The notes below the pieces were generated by a model. That model searched no databases, had not been told where the DNA came from, and saw only the letters and a program-made list of their open reading frames with translations. The translations under genes and the position numbers were made by a program. 5,539 nt of DNA from a virus (lineage: Duplodnaviria > Heunggongvirae > Uroviricota > Caudoviricetes): the IMG/VR virus record IMGVR_UViG_2681813263_000007; one strand, written 5' to 3'. Positions 1-5,539 of this stretch are shown here, in pieces; positions within the stretch are counted from its first letter, which is position 1; each line of letters begins with the position of its first letter.

Positions 1-2
1 TG

Positions 3-83
3 GTAGTGTCCGCTATTGCCAGTACACCTCACTCTGACGGAGAGTTTGTGGCAGTGGCTGCGGTGACCGTCAGCGCACCATAA
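3..83 (+). CDS. 3' end of an upstream gene, probably the major tail protein (gpV-like); 5' end lies outside the window
   Basis: Only frame 3 is open from the window start; it reads VVSAIASTPHSDGEFVAVAAVTVSAP and stops at TAA 81-83. The other two + frames hit stops within the first 40 nt. Assignment to a major tail protein is by position immediately upstream of G, not by recognised sequence. Confidence 0.45.
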   Translation, partial: VVSAIASTPHSDGEFVAVAAVTVSAP

Positions 84-141: not shown

Positions 142-528
142 ATGTTTCTGAAACAGGATACGTTTAATTATGAAAAACAGTCCGTGGTGCTCAGTGAGCT
201 GTCCGGGCTGCAGAGAATTGAATATCTGACGTTTGTTCAGCAGCGAACGGCAAAGTTTGATGCACAGGAGGGAGAACTGCCGGAGGCTGAACGACAGATT
301 GCTTTTCTGCGTATGGGAATGGATATCAATGCCTGGCTGGTTTCCCGCTCACTGTGGAATGCTGAGCAGTCTCAGGATGTTGAGACGCTTTGCGCATCCA
401 TTATGACAACATGGTCGTATGATGCGCTGGGCGCGGGGGCGGAGAGGGTTCTGTCGCTGAGCGGTATGGGGACCATTGAGAATGCCGGGGATGATGATCA
501 TGAGGCGCTGACGCCGGAAAAGTCCTGA
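142..528 (+). CDS. G: Tail assembly chaperone, lambda gpG-like
   Basis: The protein beginning MFLKQDTFNYEKQSVVLSELSGLQRIEYL resembles lambda gpG as I recall it (MFLKTESFEH...TLSELSALQRIEHL). GGAG at 132-135 lies 6 nt before ATG 142. ATG 139 and TTG 124 are in-frame alternatives with poorer spacing. Stop is TGA 526-528. Confidence 0.88.
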   Translation: MFLKQDTFNYEKQSVVLSELSGLQRIEYLTFVQQRTAKFDAQEGELPEAERQIAFLRMGMDINAWLVSRSLWNAEQSQDVETLCASIMTTWSYDALGAGAERVLSLSGMGTIENAGDDDHEALTPEKS

Positions 529-866
529 CGCGGGAAATGCAGTTTGTCATGCGGCTTGCCCGGGAGTTCCGGCGGGCAGACTGGCGGCGGATGCTGTCGG
601 ATATGTCGGCCACTGAGCTTGGTGAGTGGGGCGATTATTTCCGGATGCAGAGCTTCAGTGATGTGTGGATGGATGCGCAGTTTGCCTCGCTGAAGGCATT
701 GATCGTGAGAATGGTGTCCGGCAGCAGCGATGCTGCGGTGGCTGATTTCAGCCTTTTACCGGAAGAGAACGGGATACCGGAGCGAACGGACGAAGAACTG
801 ATGCATCTTGGGGAAGGTATTTCCGGAGGTGTGCGTTATGGACCAGATAGCCAACCTGGTCATTGA
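142..866 (+). CDS. GT: Tail assembly chaperone G-T fusion, made by a -1 programmed ribosomal frameshift near 516-522
   Basis: The -1 frame is open from 504 (just after TGA 501-503) to TGA 864-866 and overlaps the end of G. It encodes ...REFRRADWRRMLSDMSATELGEWGDYF...GGVRYGPD, which resembles lambda gpT. The T frame has no convincing independent ribosome binding site, and in lambda T is made only as the G-T fusion. Confidence 0.75.
516..522 (+). other. Candidate -1 slippery heptamer G GAA AAG for the G-T frameshift
   Basis: Zero-frame codons are GAA (517-519) and AAG (520-522); the -1 frame codons are GGA (516-518) and AAA (519-521). The site is 2 codons before the G stop, the same relative position as lambda's G GGA AAG. 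P-site re-pairing of tRNA-Glu on GGA would need a G:U pair at the middle position. Confidence 0.55.
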
Positions 867-2716
867 TTTGGGGATTGATGCGGCAGAGTTTAAAAATGAA
901 ATTCCCCGTATCAAAAACCTTCTGAATGGTGCAGCCAGCGATGCAGAACGGTCTTCTGCCCGTATGCAGCGTTTTATGGAGCGTCAGACTCAGGCGGCCC
1001 GGCAGACAATGCAGGCGGCTTCTTCGGCTGCAACAGCAGCATCAGCCCATGCGCAGACGGNNNNNNNNNNNNNNNNNNNNNNNNNNNNNNNNNNNNNNNN
1101 NNNNNNNNNNNNNNNNNNNNNNNNNNNNNNNNNNNNNNNNCCGTCTGCGCGTGGATGCCCTGAATCAGAAAATGCTCGAGGAACAGGCGCAGGCCAGGGC
1201 ACTGGCGGAGGCGCAGGATAAAGCGGCTGCCGCCTTTTATCGCCNNNNNNNNNNNNNNNNNNNNNNNNNNNNNNNNNNNNNNNNNNNNNNNNNNNNNNNN
1301 NNNNNNNNNNNNNNNNNNNNNNNNNNNNNNNNNNNNNNNNNNNNNNNNNNTGGTCAGCAGGATTATCTGGCGCTGATTTCGGAGATCACGGCGAAAACCC
1401 GTGCCCTGACGCAGGCAGAGGAACAGGCCACCCGGCAGAAAGCGGCGTTTATCCGCCAGCTTAAAGAGCAGGCAACCCGCCAGAATCTGTCGTCTTCTGA
1501 GTTGCTTCGCGCCAGGGCGGCTCAGCTGGGGGTAAGCAGTGCTGCAGAAGTGTATATCCGCAAAATGGAGCGGGCAGGAAAAGCCACACATTCGCTGGGG
1601 CTGAAAAGTGCGGCAGCCCGGCGGGAGCTGGGGGTGTTAATCAGTCAGATGGCGCGCGGCAATTTTGGTGCGCTGAGGGGATCCGGGATAACGCTGGCTA
1701 ACCGTGCCGGATGGACAGGCGCACTGATGTCGCCGAAAGGCATGATGACTGGCGGCGTTATTGGCGGACTTGTCGCGGCGGTCCTGGGTCTGGGTAAAGC
1801 CTGGCATGACGGCCGGAAGGAGGGCGAGGAATTTAACCGTCAGCTGGCGCTGACGGGACATTATGCCGGTGTCACTGTCGGGCAGTTGTGGAAACTCAGC
1901 CGGGCCATATCCGGGAATGGTATCACGCAACATGCGGCAGCCGGTGCGCTGGCACAGGTGGTGGGCAGTGGGGCATTTCATGGAAACGATATTGGTATGG
2001 TGGCGAAAGCTGCCGCACAGATGGAGCGATCGGTTGGCCAGTCGGTCAGCGATACCATAAATCAGTTTAAGCGGCTGAAGGATGATCCTGTAAATGCCGC
2101 GAAGGCGCTGGACAATGCGCTGCATTTTTTGACTGCCACTCAGCTTGAGCAGATACGCGTCCTTGGGGAGCAGGGGCGGTCCAGTGATGCGGCCCGGATC
2201 GCCATGTCTGCGCTGGCAGAGGAAACCGGTAAACGCACATCTGATATTGATAATAATCTCAATGCGCTGGGTAGTACGCTGCAAACCTTGTCTGACTGGT
2301 GGAAGCAGTTCTGGGATGCGGCCATGAATATTGGTCGTGAAGACTCGCTGGATGCGCAGATTGATGCGTTACAGGAAAAAATTCAGCGCGCGAAAAAATA
2401 TCCGTGGACAAACGCCTCCACACAGGTGGAGTACGATCAGCAGCGTCTTAACGATCTTCAGGAGAAAAAACGCCGGAAGGATTTGCAGGATGCAAAAGCG
2501 CAGGCAGAACGGAATTACCAGGAGCAACAGAAACGCCGGAATGCTGAAAATGCCGCGCTGAACCGGATGAATGAAACGGAAGCTGCACGACATCAGCGTG
2601 AAAATGAACGTTACGAAAAAGCCATTAAGAAAAATACACGGGCAACCCGTAATGATGAGGCCACCCGGTTATTGCTGCTGCCAGACAGTCAGCAGGCATT
2701 GCCACTGAAAGGATGA
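838..2716 (+). CDS. H: Tail tape measure protein (lambda gpH-like), N-terminal and central portion; contains two N-runs and ends at a frame break
   Basis: GGAGG at 825-829 lies 8 nt before ATG 838. The N-terminus MDQIANLVIDLGIDAAEFKNE resembles lambda gpH (MAEPVGDLVVDLSLDAARFDE). The start overlaps the end of T by 29 nt. Coding runs in frame 1 up to the first N-run and in frame 2 after it (RLRVDALNQKMLEEQAQARALAEAQ..., then a long alpha-helical K/R/E/Q-rich region). The central segment ...LSDWWKQFWDAAMNIGREDSLDAQIDALQEK aligns with lambda ...FKSMWDAVLDIGRPDTAQEMLIKAEAAYKK. Frame 2 ends at TGA 2714-2716. Confidence 0.85.
1061..1140. other. Run of 80 N (unresolved or masked sequence) inside the tape measure gene
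   Basis: Directly visible. The coding frame differs on the two sides (frame 1 before, frame 2 after), so the true length is not 80. Confidence 0.95.
1245..1350. other. Run of 106 N (unresolved or masked sequence) inside the tape measure gene
   Basis: Directly visible. Frame 2 is the coding frame on both sides, whereas 106 is 1 mod 3, so the true length is probably not 106. Confidence 0.95.
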
Positions 2717-3813
2717 CTGAAGCGCATAAACAGCTTCTGGCCCTGCAGCAGCGCATCAGCGACCTGGACGGGAAAAAGCTGACGGCAGATGAAAAGAGTG
2801 TGCTGACCCGTAAGAATGAGCTGATTCAGGCGCTGACGCTGCTGGATGTGAAACAGCAGGAGCTGCAGAAACAGACAGCGCTTAACGACCTGAGAAAAAA
2901 AACGGTTCAGCTGACCAGCCAGCTGGCAGACAAAGAACGTGCACTGCGTGAGCAGCACAATCTGGATATTGCCACTGCAGGTATGGGGGATAAGCAGCGG
3001 CAGCGCTACCAGGCACAGTTGCGCATCCGGCAGGAATACCGGCAACAGTTGCAACAGCTTGAGAATGACAGTCGCCAGAAAGGCACTTACGGGACGGAGG
3101 ACTACCGGAGGGCTGAGGAGGTGCTGAAGGGGAGCCTGAAGCGACAACTGAATGAAAACAAACGCTACTGGCAGGAACTGGAAGTGGCGCAGGGCGACTG
3201 GAAAAACGGTGCCATGCGGGCGTTTCAGCATTTTACGGCGGATGCGGATAATGCGGCGGGAACGGCAGAACAGATGTTTACAGTGGCATTCAGCAGTGCC
3301 GGTAATGCACTGGCGACATTCTGTACCACCGGTAAGCTGAATTTTAAATCCTTCACCTCTTCCCTGTTGTCAGATATGGCCAGAATTATGGCACAGATGG
3401 CCATGATGCAGGCGGTAAAGGGCGTCGGTTCTTTATTCGGCTTCACGACTAATGCTGATGGCGGTGTTTACCAGTCTGCTGATTTGAGTCGCTACAGTGG
3501 CACGGTGGTTAACCGTCCGACGTTTTTTGCTTTTGCAAAAGGCGCGGGTGTGATGGGGGAAGCGGGACCTGAAGCCATTCTGCCACTGCGTCGCGGTGCT
3601 GATGGTAAGCTGGGGGGTGTGGCGGATACTGGTGGTTCAGGCATGGTGATGTTTGCCCCGCAGTACAACATTGAGATCAATAACGATGGCACGAACGGGC
3701 AGATAGGTCCGGCTGCCCTGAAGGTGGTTTATGACCTCGGGAAAAAAGCGGCCGCGGACTTTATGCAACAGCAGGCCCGTGATGGTGGCCGGTTAAGTGG
3801 AGCATACCGGTAA
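2713..3813 (+). CDS. H: Tail tape measure protein (gpH-like), C-terminal portion, in frame 1; probably the same gene as 838-2716 separated by a frame break
   Basis: ATG 2713-2715 overlaps the upstream TGA (ATGA). Frame 1 is already open from 2659. The product TEAHKQLLALQQRISDL... aligns with internal lambda gpH (DSAHAALLTLQAELRTL), and the C-terminus NNDGTNGQIGPAALKVVYDLGKKAAADFMQQQARDGGRLSGAYR matches the lambda gpH C-terminus (NNDGTNGQIGPAALKAVYDMARKGARDEIQTQMRDGG...). Stop TAA 3811-3813 overlaps the M start. Confidence 0.85.
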   Translation: MTEAHKQLLALQQRISDLDGKKLTADEKSVLTRKNELIQALTLLDVKQQELQKQTALNDLRKKTVQLTSQLADKERALREQHNLDIATAGMGDKQRQRYQAQLRIRQEYRQQLQQLENDSRQKGTYGTEDYRRAEEVLKGSLKRQLNENKRYWQELEVAQGDWKNGAMRAFQHFTADADNAAGTAEQMFTVAFSSAGNALATFCTTGKLNFKSFTSSLLSDMARIMAQMAMMQAVKGVGSLFGFTTNADGGVYQSADLSRYSGTVVNRPTFFAFAKGAGVMGEAGPEAILPLRRGADGKLGGVADTGGSGMVMFAPQYNIEINNDGTNGQIGPAALKVVYDLGKKAAADFMQQQARDGGRLSGAYR

Positions 3814-4142
3814 TGGAGACGTTTCACTGGAAAGTGCGCCCGGATATGAATGTGGTATCAGAGCCGAAAGTGGTGACAGTGAAGCTGGGCGATGGTTATG
3901 AACAGCGTCGTGCGGCGGGACTGAATAACCAGTTGTCGACTTACAGCGTGACGATACGTGTTCGTAAAGGTGAACACCCATTTTTAAAAGCCTTTCTGGA
4001 ACGGCACGGTGGCGTCCGCGCATTTCAGTGGACGCCACCTTATGACTGGAAGCCGATCAGGGTGGTTTGTCGTAAATGGTCGGCAAGCGTGGGGGCGTTG
4101 TGGGTAACCATAACGGCAGATTTTGAACAGGTCGTGGCATAG
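3813..4142 (+). CDS. M: Minor tail protein M (lambda gpM-like), 109 aa
   Basis: METFHWKVRPDMNVVSEPKVVTVKLGDGYEQR...HGGVRAFQWTPPYDWKPIRVVCRKWS...ADFEQVVA resembles lambda gpM along its length and has the same size. TAATG start/stop overlap with H; GGAG at 3799-3802 upstream. Confidence 0.92.
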   Translation: METFHWKVRPDMNVVSEPKVVTVKLGDGYEQRRAAGLNNQLSTYSVTIRVRKGEHPFLKAFLERHGGVRAFQWTPPYDWKPIRVVCRKWSASVGALWVTITADFEQVVA

Positions 4143-4151
4143 GAGGCTCTG

Positions 4152-4850
4152 ATGCAGGATATTCCACAGGAAACACATCATGAGACGACACGCCTCACTC
4201 AGTCAGCCCAGGTGGTGCTCTGGGAAATCGATCTGACAGAGGTCGGTGGAGAACGTTATTTTTTCTGTAATGAGCAGAACGAAAAAGGTGAGCCGGTTAC
4301 CTGGCAGGGGCGGCAGTATCAGGCATACCCCATTCAGGGGACGGGATTTGAACTGAACGGCAAGGGCAGTGCTGCCCGTCCGACACTGACGGTTTCTAAC
4401 CTGCACGGAATGGTCACCGGGATGGCGGAAGACCTGCAGAGTCTGGTCGGCGGAACGGTGGTCAGGCGTAAGGTTTACGCCCGTTTTCTGGATGCGGTGA
4501 ACTTCGTCAACGGAAACAGCGACGCCGATCCGGAACAGGAGGTGATCAGCCGCTGGCGCATCGAGCAGTGCAGCGAACTGAGCGCGGTCAGTGCCTCTTT
4601 TGTGCTGGCCACACCAACGGAGACGGATGGCGCGGTTTTCCCGGGGCGTATCATGCTGGCGAATACCTGTATGTGGACTTACCGTTCTGATGAGTGTGGT
4701 TACACGGGCAGGGCAGTGGCTGACGAGTTCGACAAACCAACGACGGATATCCGGAAGGACAAATGCAGCAAGTGTATGCGCGGGTGTGAGTTGCGCAACA
4801 ATACCGGTAATTTCGGCGGTTTCCTTTCCATCAATAAACTTTCTCAGTAA
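4152..4850 (+). CDS. L: Minor tail protein L (lambda gpL-like), 232 aa, with a C-terminal cysteine cluster
   Basis: Closely resembles lambda gpL as I recall it (MQDI.QET...VVLWEIDLTEVGGERYFFCNEQNEKGEPVTWQGRQYQ...NFGGFLSINKLSQ). AGGAGG at 4141-4146 lies 5 nt before ATG 4152. Stop TAA 4848-4850. Confidence 0.93.
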   Translation: MQDIPQETHHETTRLTQSAQVVLWEIDLTEVGGERYFFCNEQNEKGEPVTWQGRQYQAYPIQGTGFELNGKGSAARPTLTVSNLHGMVTGMAEDLQSLVGGTVVRRKVYARFLDAVNFVNGNSDADPEQEVISRWRIEQCSELSAVSASFVLATPTETDGAVFPGRIMLANTCMWTYRSDECGYTGRAVADEFDKPTTDIRKDKCSKCMRGCELRNNTGNFGGFLSINKLSQ

Positions 4851-4854
4851 ATCC

Positions 4855-5539
4855 ATGACACAGACAGAATCAGCGATTCTGGCGCACGCCCGGCGATGTG
4901 CTCCAGCGGAGTCGTGCGGCTTCGTGGTAAGAACGCCGGAGGGGGAAAGATATTTCCCCAGCGAGAATATCTCCGGTGAGCCGGAGGAACGGTTCCGGAT
5001 GGCTCCGGAGGACTGGCTGCGGGCACAAATGCAGGGTGAGATTGTGGCGCTGGTCCACAGTCATCCCGGTGGTCTGCCCTGGCTGAGTGAGGCTGACCGG
5101 CGGCTGCAGGTGCAGAGTGATTTGCCGTGGTGGCTGGTCTGCCGGGGGGCGATTCACAAGTTCCGCTGTGTGCCACATCTTACCGGGCGGCGCTTTGAGC
5201 ACGGGGTGACGGACTGTTACACGCTGTTCCGGGATGCTTATCATCTGGCAGGGATTGAGATGCCGGATTTTCATCGCGGGGATGACTGGTGGCGTAACGG
5301 TCAGAATCTCTATCTTGACAATATGGAGGTGACGGGTTTTTACCGTGTCGCACTGACAGAGGCACAGCCGGGCGATGTGCTGCTGTGCTGTTTTGGTTCA
5401 TCGGTGCCGAATCATGCCGCCATTTACTGCGGTGACGGCGGGCTGCTGCACCATATTCCTGAACAACTGAGCAAACGAGAGAGGTACACCGACAAATGGC
5501 AGCGACGCACACACTCCCTCTGGCGTCACCGGGCATGGC
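4855..5539 (+). CDS. K: Tail assembly protein K (lambda gpK-like), with a JAMM/MPN motif and an NlpC/P60-like region; 3' end lies outside the window
   Basis: MTQTESAILAHARRCAPAESCGFVV...EIVALVHSHPGGLPWLSEADRR...GVTDCYTLFRDAY...HAAIYCGDGGLLHHIPEQLSKRERY is near-identical to my recollection of lambda gpK. ATG 4855 lies 4 nt after the L stop. No stop codon is reached before the window ends. Confidence 0.93.
   Translation, partial: MTQTESAILAHARRCAPAESCGFVVRTPEGERYFPSENISGEPEERFRMAPEDWLRAQMQGEIVALVHSHPGGLPWLSEADRRLQVQSDLPWWLVCRGAIHKFRCVPHLTGRRFEHGVTDCYTLFRDAYHLAGIEMPDFHRGDDWWRNGQNLYLDNMEVTGFYRVALTEAQPGDVLLCCFGSSVPNHAAIYCGDGGLLHHIPEQLSKRERYTDKWQRRTHSLWRHRAW

Follow-up and report, generated by a model that had tools for sequence, protein, structure and literature searches.

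The downstream end of a 5539-bp stretch of viral DNA (hereafter the window, meaning the whole stretch that was analyzed) carries a gene resembling gene K of phage lambda, and it raises two questions: whether the product of this gene carries two intact peptidase sites, and whether the survival of these sites next to a broken tape measure gene says anything about the present use of this copy. An original prediction, made from the letters alone, had proposed a gpK-like protein with an intact JAMM/MPN metalloprotease motif and an NlpC/P60-like region, and had taken the intact sites as an argument for selection. Below, we describe profile searches, alignments, structure prediction, and genome comparisons that bear on these points. 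The reading that we favor as a whole, with a probability of roughly 80%, is that the gene is a gpK/TAPK gene of a defective prophage, that its product has two peptidase domains and would be a tail-tip assembly factor, and that this copy persists as a passive remnant.

A lambda-type tail module in a defective Shigella sonnei prophage

An exact sequence look-up revealed that the window is identical to an entire contig, CXDG01000205.1 of assembly GCA_001252135.1 (5539 bp), whose proteins are named Shigella sonnei by the source database. It covers the distal half of a tail module of the lambda type, which belongs to a defective S. sonnei prophage, and strong Pfam and NCBIfam matches were obtained for the end of V and for the tail genes G, T, H, M, L, and K (Table 1). 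K sits between L and I, in the order M-L-K-I, and in sibling assemblies I, J, and lom come next. Gene I begins within the 3′ end of K, still inside the window and in an overlap that is also seen in lambda, and the first 14 residues of its translation are identical to those of lambda gpI and of the I protein in sibling assemblies.

The damage to this module begins at its upstream end, where an IS3-family element replaces V except for its last 52 nt. Bases 1-31 were 100% identical to sequence that directly flanks the ORFs of IS3-family transposases in S. sonnei genomes, and in one sibling assembly (L022) the 3′ end of the transposase was found directly upstream of the window start. The tape measure gene H, which the original prediction had described as broken, indeed proved to be so: alignment with the copies of S. 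flexneri, E. coli, and mEp460 (L013/L001/mEp460) revealed a 66-nt in-frame deletion and a 43-nt frameshifting deletion, both flanked by short direct repeats (CAGCGnGAAA; ATTGCTGC), and these deletions create the TGA at 2714-2716. In a sibling assembly that is free of N (L024), H is accordingly split into ORFs of 611 and 366 aa. Because V is cut by the IS element and H is frameshifted, no tail is possible from this module alone.

A further candidate lesion in H, an apparent change of frame across the first of two runs of N, was rejected. These runs, at 1061-1140 (80 N) and 1245-1350 (106 N), are scaffold gaps at which relatives have 52 and 91 nt; the gaps are mis-sized, the first with 80 instead of 52 nt, and the apparent frame change is therefore an artifact, in line with the observation that L024 reads through this region.

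The K frame itself runs from the ATG at 4855-4857 for 228 codons, free of stops up to the final base of the window. Its last 19 codons are missing because the contig ends there, 57 nt short of the expected stop codon, with the final bases ...CACCGGGCATGGC. In one sibling scaffold (L023), a single N follows at exactly the same base and joins it to unrelated prophage sequence. The contig thus breaks off where the assembly met a repeat that is common to several lambdoid prophages. The very same truncated-H ORF is found, together with a 247-aa K ORF, in three sibling assemblies of S. sonnei (L022, L024, and L025), and this K continues after codon 228 with RASAFTGIYNDLVAASTFV and a stop; I and then J follow downstream of K in all of them, and L024 holds a complete J (1159 aa) as well as lom. 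From these siblings, we infer that the window strain probably carries a full-length K of 247 aa, too. A truncation of the gene shortly beyond the window, which would have refuted the original prediction, is not seen in the siblings, whose gene is complete, whereas for the window strain itself the sequence stops at codon 228.

Table 1. Features of the window, with the evidence for each. Residue numbers are those of K.
Feature	Position (nt)	Strand	Evidence or remark
IS3-family insertion sequence, terminal 31 nt	1..31		100% identity; ends ...ACCTCA, abuts V remnant
Gene V (major tail gene), last 52 nt	32-83		
Gene G	142-528		Intact
Gene T	537-866		Intact
Gene H (tape measure), broken	838..3813	+	N-part to TGA 2714-2716, C-part ORF 2713-3813; Pfam TMP_2, Tape_meas_lam_C
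Gene M (distal tail protein)	3813..4142	+	Intact; Pfam Phage_min_tail 1.8e-39
Gene L (tail hub protein)	4152..4850	+	Intact; Pfam Phage_tail_L 8.3e-97, TIGR01600 1.5e-98
Gene K (tail tip assembly protein K / 'C40 family peptidase')	4855..5539	+	Codons 1-228 of expected 247
Predicted JAB/MPN+ (JAMM) metalloprotease domain, residues 3-98	4861..5148	+	Pfam PF14464, 2kks, Foldseek
E19, upstream JAMM glutamate, in CAPAESCGF	4909..4911	+	Aligned with conserved E of 2kks/2kcq 'P.E.CG'
JAMM core HSHPGGLPWLSEAD	5056..5097	+	H68, H70, D81 predicted Zn ligands; S78 conserved Ser
Predicted NlpC/P60 (peptidase C40, papain-like) domain, residues 111-224	5185..5526	+	Pfam PF00877, Foldseek
C121, predicted nucleophile, motif D-C-Y/S, within GVTDCYTLFRDAY	5215..5217	+	Aligned with MepS 'DCSG'
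H187, predicted general-base His, PNHAAIY	5413..5415	+	Aligned with RipC 'sHAgIY', MepS 'rHvgiy'
H199, predicted third triad residue, first His of LLHH	5449..5451	+	Aligned with RipC 'mvHs', MepS 'fvHa'
Gene I start (MAATHTLPLASPGM...), ubiquitin-like tip plug protein	5496..5539	+	Frame differs from K

K is a member of the lambda gpK/TAPK family

The window K aligned with K of resequenced lambda (PV340536) without a gap over 228/228 residues, at 92% identity, and the PHROG family phrog_30 ('minor tail protein') matched it at 1.4e-148. Its closest relatives in E. coli and phages are genes of 744 nt that lie between L and I and are annotated as 'tail tip assembly protein K' or as 'C40 family peptidase', the name that RefSeq uses. 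Judged by its sequence, the gene is an ordinary member of the lambda gpK/TAPK family within a degraded prophage: it has the Prok-JAB plus NlpC/P60 architecture of lambda gpK, lies in the gene series M-L-K-I-J, and runs into the start of gene I as lambda K does, and it shows no difference of substance apart from its place in a defective S. sonnei prophage, on a contig that is 19 codons short.

The two domains of this family are already known. As early as 2003/2004, lambda K had been noted to carry a JAMM motif (Ambroggio 2004, PMC300881), and the JAB plus NlpC/P60 architecture of 'TAPK', along with its adjacency to the ubiquitin-like 'TAPI', was published in 2006 (Iyer 2006, PMC1779556), in a study that also predicted processing of TAPI by TAPK at the glycine that ends the ubiquitin-like domain. 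The two-domain finding for the window gene is thus a correct rediscovery of published features.

Database records of lambda K differ in length. The classic record (J02459/NC_001416) annotates K as 199 aa, with 48 upstream codons, including that of the JAMM glutamate, placed in another frame, and PV340536 annotates it as 744 nt. The shorter form without the JAMM glutamate arises only because one nucleotide is missing relative to the mEp460, resequenced lambda, DE3, and lambda-hybrid records, and this one-nucleotide discrepancy affects users of the classic record.

The N-terminal domain carries a complete JAMM motif

The Pfam family Prok-JAB (PF14464) matched K residues 3-98 with 52.7 bits (4.7e-14; cut-off 25), covering model positions 3-103 of 114. 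The consensus H-x-H-x7-S-x2-D, which the original prediction had located at 5056-5097, was confirmed at exactly this place as HSHPGGLPWLSEAD (residues 68-81). This was the single match in the window, where a regular-expression search of all six frames found no second one, and the chance of such a pattern in a composition-matched shuffled protein is ~0.0017 (~0.17%). A further residue of the site, E19, is present as well, although it had gone unmentioned in the original prediction. In characterized JAMM enzymes, the upstream glutamate activates the catalytic water.

The structure 2kks from the PDB aligned to the domain at 1.9e-5, and E19, H68-S69-H70, S78, and D81 of K aligned with the same motif residues in 2kks and 2kcq, which makes the JAMM motif complete; a passage in Ambroggio et al. 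(PMC300881) gives the full motif as E-xn-H-S/T-H-x7-S-x2-D. With two families that have curated equivalog cut-offs the scores were low: K reached 31.8 bits against a cut-off of 130 for the NCBIfam desampylase equivalog (NF041370), and 20.7 bits against a cut-off of 81.9 for the 'phage cell wall peptidase' TIGR02219, both below membership. K is related in fold to these two families and a member of neither.

The C-terminal domain carries a predicted Cys-His-His triad

The second domain was recovered by the Pfam family NLPC_P60 (PF00877), which matched K residues 111-224 with 45.3 bits (9.6e-12; cut-off 23) over model positions 1-105 of 105. Both profiles thus scored above their cut-offs, which is the outcome that the original prediction had anticipated for such a search. 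Its description of an NlpC/P60-like region holds for the domain, for the Cys-containing segment GVTDCYTLFRDAY with C121, and for the presence of LLHHIP, whose His pair (H199/H200) lies at nt 5449-5454. The role of this pair needs correction: the predicted catalytic His is H187, which the original prediction had not listed, and LLHH supplies only the third residue of the triad, H199.

We assign the triad as C121-H187-H199 on account of alignments with RipC and MepS. In the match to RipC (8idc), which is weak, the K segment 'NHAAIYCGDGGLLHH' lies on RipC 'SHAGIYIGDGLMVHS'. A profile alignment with what we take to be the MepS sequence put D120-C121 on 'DCSG', H187 on 'RHVGIY', and H199 on 'FVHAS', and is used here as corroboration only.

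Conservation and predicted fold of the two domains

When 1.84 billion cluster representatives were searched exhaustively, 2763 relatives of K emerged, of which the best 150 were listed. For the conservation analysis, we aligned 114 of these best 150 (220-285 residues long, mostly 35-60% identical) with the window copy. In this set of 114 listed relatives plus the window copy, the JAMM residues were kept in 108 (E19), 111 (H68), 109 (H70), 105 (S78, with a further 8 carrying Thr), and 111 (D81) sequences, and the NlpC/P60 residues in 109 (C121), 110 (H187), and 110 (H199), while the other Cys positions of K varied freely. All eight catalytic residues are, in other words, each retained in ~90-97% of the 114 listed relatives. 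They were likewise invariant or nearly so in two alignments, A1 and the diverse alignment A2.

For the fold, we used an AlphaFold2 model of a proxy, the 247-aa S. sonnei protein P0005, which is 99% identical to the window K (mean pLDDT 85, pTM 0.80). In a Foldseek search against the PDB, the N-terminal half of this model matched PfJAMM1 (5ld9/5lda, both alone and with the ubiquitin-like SAMP2), Rpn11, and CSN5, with a TM-target of 0.64 and an rmsd of 2.9 Å for 5ld9. The C-terminal half matched MepS (8xup), the T. thermophilus protein 4xcm, 9ubf, 7v6s, and C. difficile autolysins, at TM-target values of 0.5-0.6. Against BFVD, the matches comprised two-domain phage proteins as well as phage proteins with a single JAB or NlpC/P60 domain. 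A sequence and family-profile search of the PDB found no solved gpK structure, and returned only the distant JAB domains 2kks and 2kcq and the weak RipC match.

The model therefore predicts an MPN fold for the N-domain and a papain-like alpha+beta fold for the C-domain, and the structure prediction that had been suggested as a check on the proposal came out in its favor at the level of the fold, with modeled likeness to JAMM1/Rpn11/CSN5 on one side and to MepS-type NlpC/P60 folds on the other. We conclude that K is predicted to join a JAMM/MPN+ zinc metallopeptidase domain (E19, H68, H70, S78, and D81) to a C-terminal NlpC/P60 domain (C121, H187, and H199), each with its set of catalytic residues complete. 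Profile, conservation, and fold evidence all bear out a gpK-like protein with an intact JAMM/MPN+ site and a papain-like domain of the NlpC/P60 type.

Relation to characterized peptidases and to F-type pyocins

With the archaeal and eukaryotic JAMM/MPN+ isopeptidases (the PfJAMM1/HvJAMM1 desampylase, Rpn11, CSN5, and AMSH), K has in common the fold and the E...HxH-x7-S-x2-D zinc site, and its top structural match is PfJAMM1, alone and bound to the ubiquitin-like SAMP2. Like these enzymes, K is encoded beside a ubiquitin-like beta-grasp protein with a C-terminal Gly-Gly. It differs from them in being only ~22% identical and in lacking E1/E2 partners, and its presumed substrate is a linear fusion inside gpI, whereas that of the JAMM isopeptidases is an isopeptide conjugate. 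The C-terminal half resembles the NlpC/P60 D,L-endopeptidases (E. coli MepS/Spr, M. tuberculosis RipC, and T. thermophilus 4xcm) in its papain-like fold and in the order and spacing of Cys, His, and His. Unlike those enzymes, to which it is ~18% identical, K is fused to a JAB domain and has neither a signal peptide nor a lipobox, and the substrate of its NlpC/P60 domain is probably a protein rather than peptidoglycan.

A third counterpart is found in the F-type pyocins, where PA0639/pyoF8 corresponds to gpK and PA0640 to gpI. PA0639/pyoF8 matches K in its position within a lambda-like tail cluster. It belongs to a Pseudomonas tailocin, not to a phage, and the likeness to K considered here is one of position and role.

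A candidate role for gpK in tail-tip maturation

In a working phage, gpK would stay in the cytoplasm and promote assembly without becoming a structural component: it would act on the J-I-L tip precursor and be absent from the virion. Its JAB domain may recognize the ubiquitin-like beta-grasp N-domain of the neighboring gpI and would cut gpI at or near the conserved C-terminal Gly-Gly of this N-domain. Such a cut would free the C-terminal plug part of gpI, the sole part that is visible in mature tips, and the NlpC/P60 domain could be a second peptidase, with either this linker or a different tail precursor as its target. We put the odds of this gpI-cutting mechanism, in which the presumed activity of the JAB and NlpC/P60 domains is that of a maturation peptidase and gpI is the presumed substrate, at about even.

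Published work on lambda and on F-pyocins is what this proposal draws on. Lambda gpK is required for tail assembly (PMC12617516), and mass spectrometry of virions failed to find it (PMC10721106). Of gpI, only residues 135-223 were resolved, where they form a trimeric plug beneath the C-terminal end of gpH (PMC10721106); the N-terminal part that is not resolved in virions could merely be flexible. In the F-pyocin, the gpK homolog PA0639 is absent from particles and its deletion leads to tubes without tips, and the N-domain of the gpI homolog is removed proteolytically (bioRxiv 10.64898/2026.02.24.707460). The same study reports that this N-domain is also removed by host proteases when the gpI homolog is expressed alone in E. 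coli, which counts against the proposed action of K. So does the fact that, in the Foldseek search, the closest solved NlpC/P60 structures are peptidoglycan endopeptidases and not protein-processing enzymes.

Gene neighborhoods bear on the link between K and gpI as well. Where K is only 31-35% identical, phage contigs still have M-L-K in this order with an I-like gene next. In the I-like proteins of these contigs, the last residues of a beta-grasp-like N-domain read ...IVGAGG or ...VEGAGG, and a hydrophobic stretch comes directly after them, along with a conserved C-terminal segment; the lambda gpI counterpart of this ending is ...VAGAKSGG. Our adjacency survey covered five loci, obtained from the queries P0200 and P0153, and for the single query P0222 no related loci were found; since it is small, the survey leans on the earlier work (PMC1779556). 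We also came across natural fusions of K and I in single proteins (P0106 and P0115).

Other roles can be envisaged for the two domains. The NlpC/P60 domain of K might be a peptidoglycan endopeptidase, i.e., a tail-associated lysin that acts at DNA injection, with K present in the virion at a low amount. This would fit the best structure matches of the C-domain, which are D,L-endopeptidases and autolysins (MepS 8xup, 4xcm, 9ubf, and RipC), and the BFVD matches, which include a 'Tail lysin' and NlpC/P60 domains inside long tail proteins. It sits poorly, however, with the failure to detect gpK in lambda virions by mass spectrometry and to resolve it in three cryo-EM studies, and with the F-pyocin proteins PA0639 and pyoF8, which are absent from or not resolved in mature particles. 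Moreover, the N-terminus of K (MTQTESAILAHARR) has no signal peptide or hydrophobic segment, so that K would stay in the cytoplasm, away from the wall, and the family-wide fusion to JAB together with the adjacency to a ubiquitin-like protein points to a protein substrate. We regard the lysin role as quite unlikely. A role in trimming another tail precursor, in particular the tape measure protein (gpH to gpH*), rather than gpI, is unlikely as well, even though a ~14-kDa peptide is cut from gpH once the tail has assembled (PMC12617516). The two peptidase domains of K would suit such a trimming activity, as would the need for K when H joins the tip and the placement of the C-terminal end of H on the gpI plug inside the tip. 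To our knowledge, no protease has been assigned to the ~14-kDa cut of gpH. The cleavage of gpH is, however, a late event, which takes place after tube polymerization and the action of gpU, whereas K acts early, on the tip; and it is gpI, not gpH, that is the ubiquitin-like partner which best explains the JAB domain.

K could also lack catalysis altogether and serve as a chaperone or scaffold for the J-I-L tip complex, with 'active sites' that are structural relics. Many MPN domains, those of the MPN-minus type, are pure scaffolds. The authors of the F-pyocin study, furthermore, call the gpK homolog a 'maturation factor' and do not invoke catalysis (bioRxiv 10.64898/2026.02.24.707460). What speaks against a pure scaffold is the retention of the eight catalytic residues among the listed relatives described above, next to Cys and other positions that are free to vary. 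Inactive MPN-minus and pseudo-peptidase domains typically lose their catalytic residues. We therefore rate a non-catalytic K as highly unlikely, and retain the cutting of gpI as the leading candidate for what the two domains do.

The intact copy as a probable passive remnant of a decaying prophage

Does the intact state of the window K argue for selection on this copy, as had been proposed? The contig contains two to three disruptive events per 5.5 kb (the IS end in V and the 43-nt and 66-nt deletions in H). At this rate, ~0.25-0.4 lesions are expected in the 684 nt of K, and an estimate from these counts gives a ~70-78% chance of an intact K without any selection. Selection on the window K is thus not shown, because an intact K is the likely outcome of chance, and G, T, M, and L are intact, too.

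Substitutions lead to the same point. The dN/dS of K relative to its relatives is 0.09-0.18. Eight of the 8-12 differences from the sibling S. sonnei copies, however, fall within a 55-nt patch at 4902-4956 that reads like the lambda/mEp460 allele. This patch looks like gene conversion, or like a mixed consensus of paralogous copies, and not like divergence in place, and we rejected dN/dS as evidence of selection on the window K since the differences cluster in this one recombinant-looking stretch. The low dN/dS of K reflects its history in functional phage ancestors.

Host selection could in principle have kept the gene, for example through domestication or through trans-complementation of another lambdoid prophage. 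The intact K ORF with both catalytic sites and the low dN/dS would agree with this idea, as would the presence, in S. sonnei genomes, of several lambdoid tail modules between which parts could be exchanged. Set against these points are the neutral expectation for a 684-nt ORF, the equally intact state of G, T, M, and L, and the clustering of the differences from siblings in a 55-nt patch, which is typical of recombination or consensus mixing. We consider retention by the host very improbable. It would likewise be a long shot that the intact K, along with I and J downstream, is still of use in S. sonnei, be it as a tip-assembly peptidase acting in trans for another lambdoid prophage or tailocin-like module, or as a JAB enzyme that strips ubiquitin-like modifications from tail proteins. 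The window K is most likely a passive, still-intact remnant, presumably without a current function.

Implications for the gpK family

For annotation, these results have little consequence, as the gene is already recognized ('C40 family peptidase', Prok-JAB plus NLPC_P60) and the copy resides in a dead prophage. The remaining interest lies in what the gpK family cleaves. Structural work from 2023 to 2026 has repeatedly found gpK to be missing from particles. The removal of the N-domain in the F-pyocin and the finding of only the C-terminal part of gpI in lambda structures together make the 2006 prediction, that the JAB domain cuts gpI, directly testable now, and lambda, not the Shigella remnant, is the right system for testing cleavage by gpK. 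The family is a candidate for a 'proteolytic checkpoint' in the maturation of the tail tip, which would be built from a ubiquitin-like domain and a JAB peptidase.

Annotation of gene K and the ends of the contig

The length of gene K, which encodes the tail tip assembly protein, depends on the lambda record consulted: K is annotated as 199 aa in the classic reference (NC_001416) and as 247 aa in a resequenced lambda (PV340536, 935-1678 of our copy). We found that NC_001416 lacks one nucleotide after GAGGC, in the region at 4633-4777 of our extract (lambda 14132-14276); the compared stretch counts 301 nt in NC_001416 versus 302 nt in records with the extra nucleotide. Because this nucleotide is absent, 48 N-terminal K codons, including that for the JAMM glutamate, are out of frame in NC_001416. 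It is found in mEp460, resequenced lambda, DE3, HK629/630, and lambda-hybrid records, and the gap in NC_001416 probably reflects either an early sequencing mistake or a variant stock used for sequencing.

The contig stops at window position 5539, 57 nt short of the expected K stop. In a scaffold from a sibling S. sonnei assembly (L023), a single-N join at position 5497 falls at the identical base, beyond which lies the 3′ region of tape measure gene H from another lambdoid prophage. This coincidence argues that the window end is a repeat boundary of the assembly and not a biological truncation of K. The last bases already hold the start of gene I, and relatives with full-length genes show a K/I overlap of ~100 nt, so that one DNA stretch encodes both the K C-terminal helix and the leader of the I ubiquitin-like domain. 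The contig start likewise falls within a repeat, that of an insertion sequence, whose end directly abuts the final 52 nt of major tail gene V (together window 1-83) and thereby truncates V.

Features of the contig and K copies of sibling contigs
Feature	Position	Description
IS3-family insertion sequence, outer end	window 1-31	ends ...CCAGTACACCTCA
H deletion 1		66 nt, in frame; flanked by CAGCGnGAAA repeats
H deletion 2		43 nt, frameshifting; flanked by ATTGCTGC repeats
Stop of H N-part	window 2714-2716	TGA; shares bases with ATG 2713 of 366-aa C-terminal ORF (ATGA arrangement)
Gene I start	window 5496-5539	MAATHTLPLASPGM; within K, different frame
K copies, sibling contig L021	8752-9222; 9240-9983
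K copies, sibling contig L022	581-1324; 8143-8886

Alterations in H and multiplicity of K

Compared with S. flexneri, E. coli, and mEp460 relatives, H carries two deletions (window 2593-2716), an allele shared by at least 17 S. sonnei contigs. A further frame change in H is false: the N-runs at 1061-1140 and 1245-1350 are scaffold gaps from the original assembly, sized 80 and 106 versus 52 and 91 nt of real sequence in relatives, and the wrong size of the former shifts the frame.

K differs from sibling S. sonnei copies at 8-12 positions, of which eight lie within 55 nt of its 5′ region (window 4902-4956), where the sequence agrees with the lambda/mEp460 allele (E31 and F34 in place of D31 and L34). 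Judged by this clustering, the patch appears to be either a gene conversion or a consensus from reads of paralogous prophage copies.

A distant viral contig (L018) carries two K-like genes in tandem: one with JAB and NlpC/P60 domains (3902-4705), followed by a second (4702-5553) that retains an intact JAMM motif (HTHTKGQNSFSTKD) and in which an NlpC/P60 match was not detectable; the I-like gene downstream has an N-domain terminating in EGAGG. Sibling S. sonnei contigs hold at least two K copies, ~89-96% identical and belonging to different lambdoid prophages, and such similar copies account for the fragmented S. sonnei assemblies. These extra K copies may also be recombination donors.
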